Below, piece by piece: positions 9,927 through 26,100 of a stretch of 32,000 bases of DNA (the first letter of the stretch is position 1; every line of letters starts with the position of its first letter). This stretch comes from Candidatus Saccharimonadota bacterium (GTDB lineage Bacteria; Patescibacteriota; Gracilibacteria; BD1-5; UBA2023): positions 1,140,001-1,172,000 of the forward strand of contig JAXLZO010000001.1 of assembly GCA_046350815.1 (NCBI GenBank), written 5' to 3'. Made by a program: the position numbers and the translations under genes. The notes beneath the pieces were generated by a model. That model saw only the letters and a program-made list of their open reading frames with translations. It searched no databases and had not been told where the DNA came from.

Positions 9927-10175
9927 ATGTGAACTTCCTGTACTAAAAACTCCTGTGAAAGTTGCCTTATGCCTTTTAGCAAAGATCTTGGAAAAAGAGA
10001 ATCAGAAAAATACTGTAGTTATTGTTTTAAAAATGGTGAACTCTGTTACAAAGGAAATAACCTGAAAGAATTCCAGAAAATATGTTATAATTCAATGATT
10101 AAAATGTGAATCAACTCAATTCTCGCAAAGTTCTATACGTTCTGCATTCGTTTTGCACCAAGATGGAAAAAATAG
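9927..10175 (+). CDS. Putative zinc-ribbon domain protein (Zn_ribbon_2/PF12674-like), 82 aa
   Basis: Sequence is ATG 9927, TGA(Gly) ... TAG 10173-10175. Pattern C-x2-C ... YCSYCFKNGEL ... FAPRWKK matches this small zinc-ribbon family as I remember it. It contains two in-frame TGA codons. Confidence 0.6.
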
Positions 10176-10176
10176 T

Positions 10177-10208
10177 AAAAATCCTAATTCTTAAAGAATT
10201 AGGATTTT
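10177..10208. terminator. Bidirectional intrinsic terminator between the convergent zinc-ribbon gene and dnaE
   Basis: Perfect hairpin AAAATCCTAATTC-TTAAA-GAATTAGGATTTT. T-rich tracts follow it in both orientations. Confidence 0.7.
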
Positions 10209-10381
10209 ATTTGCTGCCTCCCCTTCAGCAAAAGAGATTACAAAGAATGAAAGTTGAAACTGTTAACCTTCAGATACAACATTTGAGGATAGCCCTAAGG
10301 CATCAGATGCTCGATAATATAAATCACAATTGATTACATTTGTAAACACTGATGATTCAGAGGCTACAAGATTAGAAGATT

Positions 10382-19022: not shown

Positions 19023-19096
19023 CTCCCTGTAGTTTAGTGGAAGAACAAGGCACTCCTAAGGCTTAGACACAAGTTCGATCCTTGTCGGGGAGACCA
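19023..19096 (+). tRNA. tRNA-Arg (anticodon CCU), CCA encoded
   Basis: Hand-folded cloverleaf. Acceptor is CTCCCTG/CGGGGAG and D arm is GTTT-AGTGGAA-GAAC. Anticodon arm is AGGCA-CTCCTAA-GGCTT, with U33, CCT, A37 and a 31:39 A/G mismatch. Variable loop is 4 nt, T arm is ACAAG-TTCGATC-CTTGT, discriminator is A, then CCA. Confidence 0.8.
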
Positions 19097-20553
19097 AATG
19101 AAAAATCCATGTTTTTTATCTCAGAAAAGAGTTTGTTTTCCTGAATTACAAGCTCTTTTTTCGTGTTTATAAAAAGTTCGATTTCTAGTTTTGCATGGAT
19201 GATAGCTTTTTCAGAGGAATTACCCATTTCGTAGCGTTCAGAAAGGCTTTCTATGAGTTCGAACATTTCTCATACCCTCTTCTCAATATCGTACTTATTT
19301 TTGCTCTGAAGTTCGCGTTTTTGAGCGAGTAAAATAACAATCTTTTCAGAAAAATTTGCTTTTTGAGCTTTGTAATCTTCGTTACTTATAACTCATTCTA
19401 GATATCCATCCATGAGCCTTTTTTCTTTGATTCGAATTTCTCAAATTTCCAGATCAATTCCCTTTGCTTGCTCCGCATGACTTGCTACTCTTTCAGATAA
19501 TAATTCTTTGGCAATTTGAACAAATAACGGATACATGTCCTTAGGAATATAGAACTCCTTAAGACGTTGAATAATAGCTTCTTGAACCTTCTTTTGACTA
19601 ATATTTGCACGAGCTGAAGATCTCAAGTTTTGAGAGCGATAATATATGTATTTATCCTTCTTGATCTCACTGGTCAAAGTAATACCAAATTCATCTTTGA
19701 TCATTCATTTATAGAGATAATCAATCTTAATTTCCTTGTTATACGAATAGAATCCTCTTTCTAAATTTGCAACCTTCTGAAACAAAGAAGATGATATTAT
19801 TGGCTCATGCTCCCCTTGATATATTTTCCCAGAGTAACGCATCATTCCAATATAAAATGGATTCTTAAACGTACGATCAAGTGCTTGATAAGAAAAGGTA
19901 AATCACTTGAGGGATCCATATTTATTCTGAAAATATGTAGATATATCAGGTGTACTTCTTTTTTGTTCTCACCGCATTTGAAACATCTCCTTCACAATAT
20001 TGGAAGTTTCCTTATCTATCTCAACTCATCGTCCAACTATTTTGCCATCTTGAACTTTTGTGACATTTTGGTATCCAAAAGGAGCCTTATAAACACACTT
20101 CCCTTTCTCTACACAAGTAATCATTCTTGCTTTTACATTTCTAGCACGAGTATCATTATCAAATTTTGCCATTCAAAAATTCAGAAGAAGCATAAAGAGT
20201 TCACTCACCTGCTCTCAAAAATATTTTTGAGATGATGTATAAATACCCTTAATATATCCCTCTTCCAGTAAGCCAAGAACTTTGGCACTATCAGTATTAT
20301 TACGAGAAAGACGACTCACTTCATCCACAATGATGAAATCTACTTTTCATTTTTTACAAAGCGATACCATGGAGTCAAAAATTGGTCTCGTTCCACTCTT
20401 CTTCGCACTTGCAGATTCAAAAAGTGTATCAATGAGAGAGCATCACTCTTGTTCTAAAACTCGAGTACAAGCAGACAGCTGAGATTCAATAGAGTTTTGT
20501 TGTTTATCATCCCTATCCGTAGACTTTCTACAGTATATAATAGCCCTATTCAT
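19063..20553 (-). CDS. Large serine recombinase / integrase (496 aa)
   Basis: ATG at 20553, TAA at 19063-19065; joins track ORFs 19441-19704 and 19063-19266. N-terminal resolvase catalytic domain is MNRAIIYCRKSTDRDDKQQNSIESQ (YxRxST serine) ... FIIVDEVSRLSRN. Recombinase domain shows KAPFGY and NPFYIGMMRY. The C-terminus is long and coiled-coil-like. The last 34 nt overlap the 3' part of tRNA-Arg. Confidence 0.85.
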
Positions 20554-20696
20554 ATCCTCAAAATTATTTTTATAAATATATCATAAATTATTCTTGTGAA
20601 TTTTCAATTATATCCAGCAATCATTCGATAAAATTAGTAATTATTTCTTCTGATTCAATGATTTGATCATCCGACCAATCTGTAGGGAAATATTTC

Positions 20697-21734
20697 CTAC
20701 ATTCTTCAATCGACATCATGATCAGAGATTTTAATTTTCTCAAGTATTTGAGTCCAGTGCTCAGCATCTTCTTTCATATCTTTCATAAGTGTCAGGAACT
20801 CTCAGGAGTTCTTCAGTACATTCTTAGTATGTGCATGAATAATCTCCTTATAGAGAAGTGCATACACAGGACAGATGCCACGTTCTACTAATCACCGTGC
20901 GTGTCCAAGAAATATATGAACTCTCATCATACTCTTGCTGTATTCTTGAATGAGAGAGAATTCTACTTCTTCAGGTTTTCTATAGAGTGTTATAGCTTGA
21001 GCAACTAACTTCTCAAAGAGTGAAGTATGATTACTAAGATAGTTCTTCATGAGACCAAGAAGGTTATCTTCTACGAAGAGCTCATCTATTGTGTAATTTT
21101 GAGCCAATTCACGTCTTATTTCGAGTTCGACTCGTGTTATATCATCTTGAAGAAGATAATCTTGATAAAGGCGATTCTTTCACTTTTTGAGAATATCTTC
21201 TTTCTTGTTATAAATACGAATAAGACTACGTTTATTCTCAGAGGATTTTTTATTGCCAATATAGTATGTTTCAGTTATTCCACCTCTTCCAAAGAAGATA
21301 GCTCCTTTTTGAGTAAGCTTTGAGAAACTTTTCAAGATGGTGGATATAGGTGAGAGAATATCGATACAGATATCAAAACGCCTGAGGGGTTTGTTTCCAA
21401 GTGGTGAAAAATGAGATAGGAGTATATCGTAGCATCATTCTTTTCCTTCCGTTCGAAAACAAGAAGAATAGAGAGCAACATAATCTCTCGTGGGGATATT
21501 TCCTTTTTGTGCTCACTTGAAGTACGAAAAAAGAGTAACTCAATTCTTTGCAAAGATGATTTGGTAAGCAAATTTGGGATTTTCAGCTTTCGTACAATGA
21601 TATTCTCCATATGTGAAAGAATTAGAGTTATCAAAGTCGACACCTTCAAAAATTTCTTCAGAGAGAAACGAGGTATATATTTCTAGATGATCGATACCAA
21701 AATGGTAGATCTGATGAGTTTTTACATATTTCAT
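20697..21734 (-). CDS. Rep_trans-like (PF02486-type) replication initiation protein, 345 aa
   Basis: ATG at 21734, TAG at 20697-20699, checked codon by codon. It joins track ORFs 21540-21734 and 20892-21107. The core TYYIGNKKSSENKRSLIRIYNKKEDILKKGKNRLYQDY...ITRVELEIRRELA resembles the (Y)IGsr-S-...-riYdK...tRvElq pattern of rolling-circle/conjugative-transposon initiators. Confidence 0.6.
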
Positions 21735-21789
21735 AATGTTAAGAGAGAAAAGCGCATTGCAATGCCAAAAATAAAGGCATATCTAGATA

Positions 21790-22075
21790 TTTACTGATCC
21801 GACGTTATTCTGTCGGATCGAAGAAGGGTAATTACTCCTGAGAAGAACTTCTTTTTCTTTGATGCTCAATTGTGTTGAAAGTTTGCATCCGCGTACAAGT
21901 CGAACGGTTGAACCGTCTCGACTTGTGAGTCGCGGACATGCAAACGAGCAACCGCGACTTGACCCAGATACAAACTTTCGAATACCAGCATCTAACAAAG
22001 AAAAAGAGAGCTTGTGTGCGGCACAAACTCCCATTATGGATCTTTTGATGTGAAATCGAGTTTTCCCCCGGGATG
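21790..22075. other. GC-richer non-coding cluster of nested perfect hairpins (candidate replication/transfer origin or structured RNA)
   Basis: Hairpin 21796-21803/21812-21819. Nested helices GATGCT 21861-66/AGCATC 21987-92 and GAAAGTTTG 21877-85/CAAACTTTC 21971-79 enclose a 14-bp hairpin (21895-21908/21912-21926) and an 8-bp hairpin (21928-35/21952-59). A further hairpin lies at 22008-22030. Stop-free junk ORFs appear on both strands here. Confidence 0.55.
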
Positions 22076-22080
22076 AAAAA

Positions 22081-23121
22081 TTATCCTTGGGCTTCCCAAT
22101 GAAGGAAGATCATGTCTTTTTTTATCTCGAATATATCTCAATTTTGATATTTTTTCCGAAGATTTTTCCGAATAGTTCGAAGGAGCGAAGTTCTAATATT
22201 TTCTCCTTGAATATCATTTGCACTCAAATATTTAAATGTGCTTCTACTGCATTGATCCCAAAAATTGACCAATTCTCAAACAGTTATCTTCTTGGTATCT
22301 GGAAAGCATGTAAAATATTGAGCAAGAAAAGAGAGAAATTCACTAGCCTTACTTTTTTTAAGAATAAAAATATGGTTATTAATGAAAAGCTTTCAATCCC
22401 TAAAGGAAACCTGAGAGACATATTCTTTTGATTCTGATCTCTTTAAGTCATCGATAAGATTTTGTATAGTTTCACTATCGGCATGAAATGAACAAGTTGC
22501 ATGATATGATTTATCAAGATTGAGTTGCCTATTGAGTTCATCTTCACCAATATCATCCTCAATCTTTTCTTTTATCAAGTCTAATATTTCTGAGACTTCT
22601 GTTTGAGAAATAGAAGTCTCCATAATTGGTGGCAGGGTTGTAGGTATGGGTTTTATGAACTTCTCAAAAGAGAGCTGAATTTGTCTTTTCCCTTGTTTAT
22701 CGACGGTAAAATACCCTTCTTTTTCTCCCATTTGAAGGATATTTTCTGATATATTTTTATGAACTATTTCTATGACACCAATATTGTGAAGTTCTTTGAT
22801 GGTATTACGTCTTTCCCCCGCTATTCGTGCAAATGCGGTTGCATCTGGAAAAAACTGATTACTAAAAATATTTTCAGAATAGTGATTTGTTTTCTTATAG
22901 GTTAATAAGCAGCATCCATCGAGCATATCTTGTTCAGGCAATGGCATATCTTCACCATTCTCCTCCTCGTATATTTTCCGAAGCTTCTGAATCTCCACTT
23001 TTATTCAATAAGATGTCTTTATAGCCAATAAAATATCTTGAAATAGATCTCGTATTATCATCTTTTCAAGGGAAGATTTTGTATTGTAATATTTAAGGAA
23101 TTTTGTGAAGTGTTGGTTCAT
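22081..23121 (-). CDS. Hypothetical protein (up to 346 aa; start uncertain: ATG 23121, ATG 23061 or GTG 22998)
   Basis: The frame of track ORF 22393-22998 continues through two TGA codons to TAA 22081-22083, checked codon by codon. It starts 43 nt downstream of res on the same strand. I recognise no domain with confidence. Confidence 0.5.
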
Positions 23122-23164
23122 GATTAAATTTTCTATACCAAATATTAATCTCTAAAGTTTTTTC

Positions 23165-26100
23165 TTAAATAAGAATCTTCTGAACCAGATCATCGAAACT
23201 TCGTATCACATCATACTTCACATCAGTGTGGCAGAGAGACTCAAAATGTTTTTTTGCATATCGAATTTTCAGATCTTCTGTACCTTTGAGATCAAGTGAA
23301 CTCAAACTTCACTTTGTCTCAGCTATGAAGTATATGTACTTCACATCAGACCTATCAAATACGATTGCCCAGTCAGGATTATAATTCCCTACAGGAGTAG
23401 ATATCTTAAATCCACTCGGGAGCTTCGCATATACAAGTACTTGCTCAGTCTCTAGTTCTGAGGCAAAACTTCTTTCTACTTGCGAATCAGTTTTTACATA
23501 GTCATAGATATGCTTATTCACTCGGAGGATATTTTCCTTGAGAGATCCTCTAAAATTCTTAAGTGTAAAAATATCAGTCGAATACTTCTGATCCGTTTTT
23601 GTATAAGTGATATTACTGATAAGTGTGGATGCTTTTTGTTCTTCGATAAGTCGAGAAACTTTTTTGATAAAGTCTTCAGGATTCTCACGGAAAAGTGAGA
23701 ACTTCAGTTCGTGTATCCGCCTCAGGATTTCTGCAATAGTTCATCTGCGAAGGTTGGTATTCTTTGCAATCTCTCACACGAGATCATAGCGAATATTACC
23801 GAGGATATTTGAAGTAAGATTGGTTTGCCTTTCGAGCTTTGTGAGACTTGTATGTGATCTTAAGCTTTCTTCATCGATAGTGTCATTTTGTGTTGCAATT
23901 GTAACACTAACCGTAACTCGATTAACTTCTAAGTGAGCATTCAAACTCTCGACACTTTTCTCTATGAGTTCTTTACTATCAAAGTCTACTTCATATGCAG
24001 TGATGGTATTGATTTTGGACCAGAGATCTTGGAACTCTTTCTTCGAGAAGTTATCATTTGGTTTTAGTATTGCTTCATTCACATTGTCTTCCCGACCATC
24101 ATCTACCGCCTTATAGTTATCTGTCGAGTATACATCTTGAACTATCTTCACGATCTCAGGAGTGAATGAAGAAAACTCTGTCGGGACTGCAAATATTTTC
24201 GATTCGATATCTGCGATACATTTCTCTGTAACCTTATAATCAGAATCAAGATATCCCTTCATCTTCATATCGAAGATAAGGTTCATAGAACTCGAGTCAT
24301 CAAATATAAATTTCTCTCCGAGATCATTTTTGAGTACTCGACCCTTAAAGACATCGGTTGTCAGTTTTCTCGGACGATTCGAGAGAGTGTCTAGGATCTC
24401 TTTCTGTAGCTCACTCGCAAACGTCTCATACGATTCGCTCGCAACTACCGTGAGAGTGTTATAGTCAAAGAACTCATTCTCGAGAGTATGATGATCCATT
24501 CGATCACCGTTTGCATTGACACAAATTCGGAGTCATCGTCCTATCTCTTGTCTCTTACTGATAGTAGACTGTGACATCTTGAGTGTACATATCTGGAATA
24601 CATTCGGATTGTCCCATCATTCACGAAGTGCAGAATGAGAAAAAATAAACCTGGTCGGCTCCTCAAAACCAAGGAGAACTTCCTTCTTTTTCATAATGAG
24701 ATCGTAGGCTGAGATATCATCACTTCCGCCTTCTCATTTTTTCTCACTCGAATCTATGAATTTTCACTTCTTGTCTACTGAGAAGTATCCATTATGAACA
24801 TCACTCGCCTTGAATCTCTCAAGATATTTTCGATAGTCTCATTCAAAAAGAGTTTGCTCACGAAGTATATCCTCGTATTCCTCTTCAAAAATCTGAGCAT
24901 ATTCTCCTGGTATAGGATTTCCTGATTCATCATACCCACGATACTTTGCCACTTCATCTATGAAGAAAAGTGAGAGTACCTTGATCCCTTTATGGAACAT
25001 AGTACGCTCTTTCTCGATATGGGACTTGATCGTCTCTCGTATCTGGATACGTCGGATATGCTTATCATCCACATTTCCCATAGCTTGTCAGACTCGGATA
25101 GTGACGCCATTGGTGAATGATACTGTGTTCGTAATTCCGTTGATCTCCTTCACGATGAATCCTCTATACTGTTCGAGTTCACCTGATAGCTCATAGAGAT
25201 TGTCTCATTCTTCTACTTTTTTGAGTACTTTCTTGATCCCTGAATCTTGCTTTATTTCCATCTCCATCTTGATATGTGCGGATGGAAAACTCTTGGTGCT
25301 GATATTGATACGGTCAAGGAAGAGGAAACTATTTGTCCCCACATTTCCGACTACTTCGATTCATTTCACATTGATTTTCTTTACGAGCTTTTGATTATAT
25401 GCATCGATAGCATCGAGCCTGTATATTTTATTGAAGTCTTGTTTGTGTGTCGCTGAATACCTTAGGGTGAAAAGTGGATGAAATTCATGAAGGGTATTCT
25501 CAGCCTTATCTCAGAATCTTTGAGGCTCATCGATAATGAGTATTGGATGAGTTCACTTGATTATATCGATAGGCTTTTGTGATCCGAGACTATCAAGAGT
25601 TTGGTATATCTTTTTTGATTCTTTACTGGTTGTCGCAAATGCCTGATAGTTCATGACGATCACTTCGATATTGGCACTCGATGAAAAGTTCTTGATGTTT
25701 ACGAGATTGGATTTGTTCCCAGTATCATAGATAAAAAATCGAATCTTCTTTCCATAGAGTTCCTGGAAGTGCTCGGCGGTGATCTCGAGTGACTTATTCA
25801 CTCATTCACGGATAGCAATCGATGGTACCATGATAATGAACTTACTCCACCCATATTGCTTGTTGAGTTCGAATATCGTCTTCGTATAGACATAGGTCTT
25901 ACCTGTTCCTGTCTCCATCTCGATAGTAAAATTCTTTCCTCACTCGAGCTTCTTCGAGACAGGGAGTCATGATTCATTTTGGATGTTATTGATATTGGAA
26001 AGGAGAGTTTCTTCGGATATCTCGAGTGGCTTATTCGAAAACATCTCTTCTATTTCGATTCTTTTTCCGAAAAGATTATCATCTATCACTCTTCGATCTG

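Follow-up and report, generated by a model that had tools for sequence, protein, structure and literature searches.

Within a window of 32,000 nucleotides (nt) from Candidatus Saccharimonadota bacterium, a member of the Gracilibacteria (GenBank assembly GCA_046350815.1, contig JAXLZO010000001.1, positions 1,140,001 to 1,172,000; coordinates below count from the first letter of the window), we analyzed the gap at 21735-22080, which lies directly upstream of the gene for Rep, a divergent initiator-like protein. Our analysis somewhat favors reading this gap as the composite origin region of a Rep_trans-fold initiator element, combining a double-strand origin (dso) or origin of transfer (oriT) with a single-strand origin (sso). 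The firmer part of this reading concerns Rep itself: the region is probably a Rep origin in which a small hairpin at 21796-21819 serves as the nick hairpin. The assignment of the adjacent large nested hairpin (21850-22007) as the sso is more tentative, a plausible proposal that falls short of being probable. The gap is part of a compact Gracilibacteria element of the integrative type, with tRNA genes as its likely targets. The initial annotation had offered an origin or oriT and a novel structured RNA side by side. The DNA-level origin reading is supported by 48 related loci, and the RNA reading, for which there was no Rfam match, was neither supported nor excluded.

A covarying hairpin and two dyad boxes precede the Rep gene

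The comparative set of 48 related loci was drawn from protein-guided scans (18 genome and 29 metagenome loci), with one exact-protein look-up and one distant viral contig in addition. The initial annotation had listed an 8-bp hairpin at 21796-21819 as a flank of a larger fold. The hairpin is present on the minus strand as GATCCGAC-AGAATAAC-GTCGGATC (stem 21796-803/21812-819), but rather than a mere flank it proved to be the universally conserved, covarying element of the region. All loci with sufficient sequence ahead of Rep have a GC-rich hairpin of 6 to 10 bp, located 45 to 118 nt upstream of the Rep start. Its loop contains an invariant AATAA within the consensus (T/A)CAATAAT, usually followed by CAGT(T)AAC; the loop in the window is AGAATAAC. 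Across 30 distinct sequences, 91.4% of the cells were paired, though MAFFT left three sequences out of register, and pairing in slid controls did not exceed 49.5%. Compensatory changes affected six of the seven pairs. The alignment held 34 double-change cells, compared with 9.0 ± 2.4 in shuffles, none of which (0/500) reached that number. A strict pattern, which required AATAA in the loop and a stem of 7 or more Watson-Crick bp with no fewer than 4 GC pairs, occurred 33 times in 641 kb scanned, always at the nick-hairpin site. By analogy with known initiators, 21796-21819 is likely the site nicked by Rep, that is, its candidate dso or oriT.

Two palindromes occupy the interval between this hairpin and the Rep start codon. 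Dyad box P1 (ATATCTAGATAT, 21779-21790) lies directly 3' of the nick hairpin, and dyad box P2 (GCATTGCAATGC, 21754-21765) lies 19 nt before the Rep ATG. P2 is the perfect 12-bp palindrome reported in the initial annotation, and it is now seen to be one of two positionally conserved boxes. At least one palindrome of 8 nt or more was present between hairpin and ATG in 30 of 33 loci, most of which had two at fixed positions, P1 just after the hairpin and P2 about 30 to 45 nt later. The sequences of both boxes change between loci while their dyad symmetry is kept: P1 reads ATACCTAGGTAT in L025, AGTTAACT in many other loci, and AGTTATAACT or AGTTTATAAACT elsewhere; P2 reads GCATCGCGATGC in L022, a symmetric double change, and ACTCCGGAGT, ACTCGCGAGT, or ACTACCGGTAGT elsewhere. 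This sequence pattern is what would be expected of sites for a dimeric protein with element-specific recognition, presumably Rep (or the product of gene X, described below).

Rep is predicted to adopt the Rep_trans fold

Rep (20697-21734, minus strand; 345 amino acids [aa]) is very divergent. The initial annotation had identified the neighbor of the gap as a Rep_trans protein, and this identity is borne out by the predicted fold, while the match to Pfam Rep_trans (PF02486) scored 17.9 bits, below the cutoff of 29.6. Only 5 of 37 Rep relatives matched the same profile at an expectation (E) value of at most 0.1, and the distant relatives fell below the threshold as well. Searches of Rep against PHROGs and NCBIfam gave no match, a match to an N-terminal helix-turn-helix (HTH) was likewise absent, and a profile search with the Rep alignment against PDB sequences did not recover RepD. 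Because the Pfam score was subthreshold and the PDB profile search lacked RepD, structure prediction was needed for the identification of Rep. We therefore employed an AlphaFold (AF2) model of P0001, a homologue 88% identical to the window Rep, built from a 36-sequence alignment (predicted local distance difference test score, 82). In Foldseek, the model matched the three solved Rep_trans initiators RepDE (4cwc, E 2e-9), RepD (4cwe), and RepSTK1 (4cij) with E values of 2e-9 to 9e-8 and probability 1.0, and the next structural match had an E value of only 0.05. As judged from this model, Rep is a very divergent, unannotated branch of the predicted Rep_trans fold. Its invariant residues include R173, Y175, K177, R201, E203, and E205, and its invariant motifs include R-x-Y-x-K and T-R-x-E-x-E-x-R. 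The family is small, with 395 representatives at E ≤ 1e-3 among 1.84 billion proteins.

A large nested hairpin adjoins the nick hairpin

The core of the fold described in the initial annotation belongs to a nested hairpin of 158 nt (21850-22007, minus strand), our candidate sso. All of the helices listed earlier are present where they had been placed. What had been missed is a perfect 12-bp outer stem (21850-21861/21996-22007), one arm of which is pyrimidine rich and the other purine rich. Inside it follow the helix 21861-66/21987-92 and a 15-bp helix (21877-91/21965-79), and these enclose a three-way junction that holds the hairpins 21895-21926 and 21928-21959. The paired segment 21877-21894/21962-21979 contains the 9-bp inner helix of the initial annotation; the two junction hairpins correspond to 21895-21903/21918-21926 plus ACGG/CCGT and to 21928-35/21952-59. 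The claim that all pairs are Watson-Crick did not hold, as 5 of the 69 pairs in the minus-strand minimum free energy (MFE) structure are G.U; the inner helix of this structure is longer than described, at 15 bp. Neither strand carries a T-tract after the large hairpin.

The same large element is found in loci L019 to L022, whose Rep proteins are about 90% identical to that of the window, and blastn and nhmmer searches of the gap against the related loci found it to be common only to relatives at this level of identity. In more distant loci, the sequence match to the gap was limited to the part between the nick hairpin and the ATG, both included. Across 21851-22050, a single position distinguishes L019 from the window, with flanks 76 to 94% identical; the comparison is a mosaic in which other patches of 100% identity exist. 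Conservation of the noncoding block sets in at about 22068, also in loci whose upstream gene ends differently.

The 220 nt upstream of the nick hairpin were GC enriched relative to their own locus in 36 of 38 loci and were unusually structured (median z, -4.8). Six loci have a long hairpin in common with 47 consensus pairs, 18 of them compensatory, and with a pyrimidine-rich 5' arm and a purine-rich 3' arm. We built a covariance model, R1, from these six distant loci only, without window-like sequences. The new members that it detected were always on the Rep-sense strand and abutted the nick hairpin (0 to 65 nt 5' of it): L045 (E 1.5e-8), L011 (4.7e-7), L022 (6.4e-6, 40.6 bits), L020 and L021 (2.6e-4), and L027 (6.9e-4). 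With filters off, the best match in the whole window was 21851-21999 on the minus strand (27.1 bits, E 8e-4). The large element was recovered by the covariance model across Rep clades that are only about 40% identical. The second-best match in the window (21.7 bits, E 0.015), at 10138-10244 on the minus strand, is a long hairpin that closely follows dnaE, probably a terminator with no relation to the element.

A structure-blind MAFFT alignment of 12 elements revealed two common helices, GAAAG.../...CTTTC and GTCAAG-CGGT/ACCG-CTTGAC, in which 92.5% of the cells were paired and 14 of 19 pairs were compensatory; slid controls reached at most 45%. The window version carries about 30 extra nt, including a partial duplication (CAAGTCG..CGGTT), and this turns the single long hairpin of other loci into the three-way junction seen here.

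Strand preference of the large hairpin

The initial annotation had left the strand open. For the window and its close relatives, G.U pairs and substitutions incline toward the minus strand, and the large hairpin leans to this Rep-sense strand. In L020 and L021, six substitutions affect paired positions, and five of them produce G.U on the minus strand, equivalent to A.C on the plus strand; one change in L022 runs against this G.U lean. The minus-strand fold was more stable in all five close relatives. All five wobble-creating substitutions in L020 and L021 are C-to-T or A-to-G on the Rep-sense strand. Two causes are conceivable: selection that maintains pairing, or deamination that acts asymmetrically on a strand frequently in single-stranded form.

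A σ70 promoter scan detected no promoter in the gap, be it in or next to the large element, and a manual search for promoter boxes in the hairpin stems gave results that were inconsistent between loci. In the window, the T-tract of an upstream terminator-like hairpin provides the 5' arm of the outer stem, which leaves no space for a sense promoter.

The gap as a whole and its upstream end

We examined the folding of the complete gap (21735-22080) as RNA. The plus strand had a z of -6.35 (MFE, -112.1 kcal/mol) and the minus strand a z of -8.14 (MFE, -122.1 kcal/mol), and on either strand none of 100 dinucleotide shuffles folded as well. Folded as single-stranded DNA, the core (21845-22012) gave a z of -9.83 and an MFE of -46.4 kcal/mol on the minus strand, versus -7.85 and -41.4 kcal/mol on the plus strand. 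The gap is GC-richer than its surroundings, as reported, but the difference is modest: 42.2% for the gap, 44.3% for the core, and 51.5% for its inner part, compared with 38.5% for the window. In agreement with the initial annotation, the gap resembles no known RNA family. An Rfam search of the window yielded tRNA only; over 20500-23500 at E ≤ 10, nothing relevant appeared apart from chance snoRNA-like matches, and in 18 related loci only tRNAs reached the gathering score.

At the upstream end of the gap, a flanking hairpin of 3 + 5 bp had been noted at 22008-22030. It is present as part of an 11-pair stem at 22006-22032 that, with a T-rich tail at 21996-22005 (TTTTTCTTTG), forms a terminator-like structure on the minus strand (21996-22032). 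In a terminator scan, this hairpin had 5 GC pairs among its 11 and lay 49 nt past the stop codon of gene X, and it looks like an intrinsic terminator of that gene. Its stem is kept in the relatives, whose changes are located in the loop, and its tail is shared with the outer stem of the large hairpin, whose 5' arm it also forms. A conserved spacer of 36 nt (22033-22068, minus strand) starts the conserved noncoding block and ends in CATAAT before the terminator-like hairpin. From 22066 onward (34 of 36 nt), all five close relatives have the identical spacer sequence, although the upstream gene of L020 and L021 ends differently; the only feature visible in it is the -10-like box.

A further hairpin, with covarying stems and a conserved GTTTATC loop, recurs in the interval from gene X to the large hairpin, where a conserved TTTTTTTAAAGCTTTAAA follows it. 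We saw it in L006 to L011, L015, and L034 (also in L003, L017, and L029), about 60 to 150 nt upstream of the nick hairpin, and it may act as a terminator or as some other cis-site.

The gap belongs to an integrative element that probably targets tRNA genes

Clustering of open reading frames (ORFs) read with genetic code 25 revealed a conserved order in the related loci: gene X, the gap, Rep, zero to four cargo genes, a large serine recombinase, and a tRNA gene. The recombinase of the window (19063-20553, minus strand; 496 aa) matches Pfam Resolvase and Recombinase, and 38 loci have a large serine recombinase downstream of Rep; this protein is the element's integrase. Its gene overlaps at its end with a convergent tRNA-Arg(CCU) gene (19023-19096, plus strand), which is likely the integration target. 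A convergent tRNA gene adjoined or overlapped the recombinase gene at its 3' end in essentially every locus that we checked: Arg-CCU in the window and Cys-GCA, Glu-CUC, Lys-UUU, or Trp-CCA elsewhere (tRNA at the recombinase end in L003, L010 to L012, L014, L015, L017, L018, L021, L027 to L029, L032, L036, and L042). Integration of a serine recombinase element into tRNA genes is unusual.

Close relatives reside at different tRNAs, as illustrated by the window (Arg) and L021 (Trp), and two different elements of the family were found in one metagenome-assembled genome (MAG) in two cases, L006 with L017 (CAXHZN01) and L007 with L010 (CAZJHB01). Both observations indicate that these are mobile integrative elements. 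Coexisting elements differ in their hairpin stems and dyad boxes, as would be expected if origin specificity avoids cross-talk. Identifiable cargo in the related elements consists of anti-phage defense functions (Shedu SduA_C, SMODS, Abi_alpha, and a Ser/Thr kinase); cargo between Rep and the recombinase lies at 6227-7432 in L009, 5894-6877 in L006, 2796-3446 in L036, and 5710-6786 in L011. Within the window, we found no att-type direct repeats of the tRNA end of at least 12 nt. Missing direct repeats are expected for serine recombinases. In IMG/VR, Rep had one distant protein relative, and the DNA pattern CAATAATN7GCAGTTA gave chance matches only, with no Rep nearby.

Genetic code and gene context

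Read with the standard bacterial code, the window yields few long ORFs, and the calls around the gap, including those of Rep and the restriction-modification (R-M) operon, are fragmented. Reading TGA as a sense codon raises the ORF total of the window from 27 to 89 kb. Where alignment columns contain TGA, Gly is a common residue, and the eight commonest residues do not include Trp. The homologues were found in MAGs of Candidatus Gracilibacteria and Patescibacteria, and we therefore applied code 25, which we take to be the code of the window from established knowledge of these bacteria.

Reread in this manner, all genes around the gap are on the minus strand, in the order SNF2-like helicase, type III Mod and Res, gene X, gap, Rep, and serine recombinase; trigger factor comes after tRNA-Arg(CCU). 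The initial annotation had placed the gap between the Rep gene and the R-M operon. The Rep side of this placement stands; on the other side, since TGA is read as sense, the gap adjoins the 346-aa gene X (22081-23121, minus strand) and not the R-M operon directly. The type III R-M system and the SNF2-like helicase of the window are located upstream of gene X. This gene is a conserved syntenic partner upstream of Rep, with a homologue immediately upstream of the gap in about 35 loci (ORF clusters 2, 4, 5, and 26). It had no match in Pfam, PHROGs, or NCBIfam, and six homologues yielded nothing credible in Pfam. By eye, its C terminus resembles an OmpR-type winged helix. Gene X is a candidate for an origin-binding or regulatory protein.

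Discussion

According to our model, the Rep-sense strand would carry, from 5' to 3', the terminator of gene X, the 158-nt self-complementary element, the AATAA hairpin, the two dyad boxes, and the Rep start. Rep would act as a dimeric tyrosine transesterase of the Rep_trans fold that recognizes the dyad boxes, extrudes the hairpin, and nicks its AATAA loop, which would constitute the dso or oriT. Rolling-circle synthesis or transfer would then displace the Rep-sense strand with the rep gene first, the choice of this strand resting on analogy with ICEBs1. The large hairpin, immediately 5' of the nick, would be the last part to turn single stranded. It could then fold into an sso at which host RNA polymerase or primase would prime the complementary strand. 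Our reading of the large hairpin as an sso rests on its place ahead of the putative dso, where rolling-circle plasmids usually have their sso and where it would become single stranded last (PMC4595007).

Several observations weigh against this model. The conserved CT'AA nic motif of pT181-type and MOBT systems is absent, with CTAA in the loop of none of the 30 distinct loci. The CS-6 motif of ssoA, TAGCGW, is absent from 21735-22080. A blastn search of the gap against 72,556 PLSDB plasmids and 50,697 phages gave no match, and the large hairpin is not similar to any of these plasmid or phage sequences. Some loci have only terminator-like hairpins upstream, and circular contigs were not found among the short related contigs. 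In ICEBs1, a Rep_trans-type integrative element, sso1 is situated just after nicK, downstream of oriT (PMC4595007). Across all loci there is no general strand bias, the sense strand being the more stable in 21 of 38, and to that extent the original indecision about the strand stands. The wobble evidence comes from one lineage, in which a C-to-T mutation bias could account for the sequence changes. Moreover, nicking at the hairpin, the nicked and displaced strands, binding to the dyad boxes, and lagging-strand priming by the large hairpin are all steps that we infer.

A different function for the large hairpin would be that of a structured RNA, either as the leader of the rep mRNA or as a small or antisense RNA controlling the expression or copy number of Rep. 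Countertranscripts exert such control in pT181-type plasmids. The stable RNA fold, the covarying helices, and the G.U pairs on the Rep-sense strand would all agree with an RNA, as would the conserved upstream spacer with its -10-like CATAAT, and Rfam covers only described families, so that the missing match leaves room for a new one. Nevertheless, sense transcription of the element would need read-through of the terminator-like hairpin and T-tract just upstream, which overlap its 5' arm. In addition, the promoter scan was empty in and next to the element, no terminator follows it, and both stem arms are conserved in primary sequence, as a site recognized in duplex DNA could also be. We consider an RNA function unlikely. 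In a further alternative, the large inverted repeat acts in double-stranded or cruciform form as a relaxosome-like platform, for gene X or Rep for example, that aids melting or nicking. Stem motifs are conserved on both arms (GTCAA../..TTGAC and GAAAG/CTTTC), the element adjoins the nick hairpin in all loci, and gene X is always syntenic; MOBT relaxases bind sites distant from nic and may need accessory factors (PMC9371924), which is in keeping with such a platform. Continuous pairing over 47 to 69 bp, including bulges, exceeds what protein half-sites need, however, and the lean toward G.U pairs would be unexpected in a purely duplex site. Like the RNA function, a duplex platform appears improbable to us.

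The gap might also lack any origin function and consist merely of a terminator or insulator for gene X, operator palindromes for rep, and fortuitous hairpins. A terminator-like hairpin does exist, several loci show only such hairpins upstream, and palindromes just before a start codon are typical operators. Against this, the hairpin with the AATAA loop occurs universally, shows covariation, and carries no T-tract, and the large hairpin, which lacks a T-tract on both strands, is found again by the covariance model in widely diverged Rep clades; we regard this explanation as very unlikely. As for coding, reading TGA as sense lets several ORFs cross the gap, among them one of 83 aa (21783-22034, minus strand). 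We rejected this ORF, in line with the initial annotation, which had seen no credible coding sequence: it has no Pfam match, it is not conserved, as L020 and L021 carry two 1-nt indels within it, and distant loci have unrelated sequence there. The probability that it or another stop-free frame encodes a small protein is negligible.

Returning to the origin model, it can be placed among known systems. In ICEBs1 the oriT lies 5' of nicK, and in pT181 the origin lies inside the rep gene. The dso of the pT181 family and the oriT of MOBT systems (ICEBs1 NicK, ICESt3 RelSt3, and Tn916 Orf20) are like the region described here in that they serve an initiator with a Rep_trans fold, predicted in our case, and in that the AT-rich loop of a short GC-rich hairpin, here just upstream of the initiator gene, is the putative nick site. 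In Rep_trans plasmids and MOBT relaxase systems, the nic site is in the loop of a GC-rich hairpin with an inverted-repeat bind site adjacent or downstream (PMC9371924). The dyad boxes, adjacent to and downstream of the hairpin, would be counterparts of IRIII of pT181 and IR2 of ICESt3 (PMC9371924). In contrast to those systems, the loop here lacks CT'AA, and the protein remains below the Pfam Rep_trans threshold and has no N-terminal HTH match. The origin is intergenic, unlike that of pT181, and the host belongs to a code-25 candidate phylum and not to the Firmicutes.

In most rolling-circle plasmids, the sso is upstream of the dso, is orientation specific, and forms stem-loops (PMC4595007). 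The large hairpin shares with the known sso types (ssoA, ssoT, ssoU, and ssoW; palA) and with sso1 of ICEBs1 that it is noncoding and, at 130 to 160 nt, extensively self-complementary. Its location directly ahead of the putative dso is the usual one in rolling-circle plasmids (PMC4595007), and its orientation relative to Rep is fixed in all loci. It differs from them in its lack of PLSDB similarity and of the CS-6 motif, and from ICEBs1 in lying upstream rather than downstream of the putative nick site.

The intergenic region of Ff filamentous phages carries a terminator/packaging hairpin, minus-strand origin hairpins, and a plus-strand origin hairpin, followed by gene II. The sense-strand order of terminator hairpin, large hairpins, nick hairpin, and initiator gene is the same here. 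Unlike in these phages, there are no phage structural or morphogenesis genes, Rep and gene X have no PHROGs match, and the initiator belongs to another family.

A similar kind of element is found in Firmicutes, whose integrative and mobilizable elements (IMEs) with Rep_trans/MobT proteins and recombinases are likewise small integrated elements with a Rep_trans-type protein, an integrase, cargo, and site-specific insertion. Some of these IMEs use serine recombinases (PMC5704250). The elements described here differ in combining a large serine recombinase with tRNA-gene targets and in their defense cargo, and no coupling protein or type IV secretion system (T4SS) gene was seen in the loci. The general kind of system, a Rep_trans-type origin carried by an integrative element, is known from Firmicute IMEs (PMC5704250). 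What is new is the protein family outside curated models, the loop motif, the family of structured elements, the pairing of serine recombinase and tRNA targets, the defense cargo, and the code-25 host.

The mobile elements of Patescibacteria are almost unstudied, and the locus defines a recurrent compact element type whose Rep initiator is invisible to Pfam, NCBIfam, and PHROGs. In Firmicutes, MPF_FATA-like machinery works with Rep_trans-related MOBT relaxases. A 2025 survey found neither relaxases nor oriT for the widespread T4SS of Patescibacteria, which is homologous to the conjugation machinery of monoderms (MPF_FATA), and suggested "very different relaxases" (PMC12102498). By analogy, and as a speculation with a small chance of being right, the Rep family and its hairpin origin could be those missing relaxases and oriT; the elements would then be mobilizable defense islands transferring as single strands, and the 130- to 160-nt hairpin would represent a new class of single-strand initiation element. 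If Rep does nick the AATAA loop, the specificity of Rep_trans proteins would extend beyond CT'AA. The elements would also offer a starting point for genetic tools in Gracilibacteria, such as replicons and integrative vectors, and whether the T4SS of Gracilibacteria moves DNA would become directly testable.

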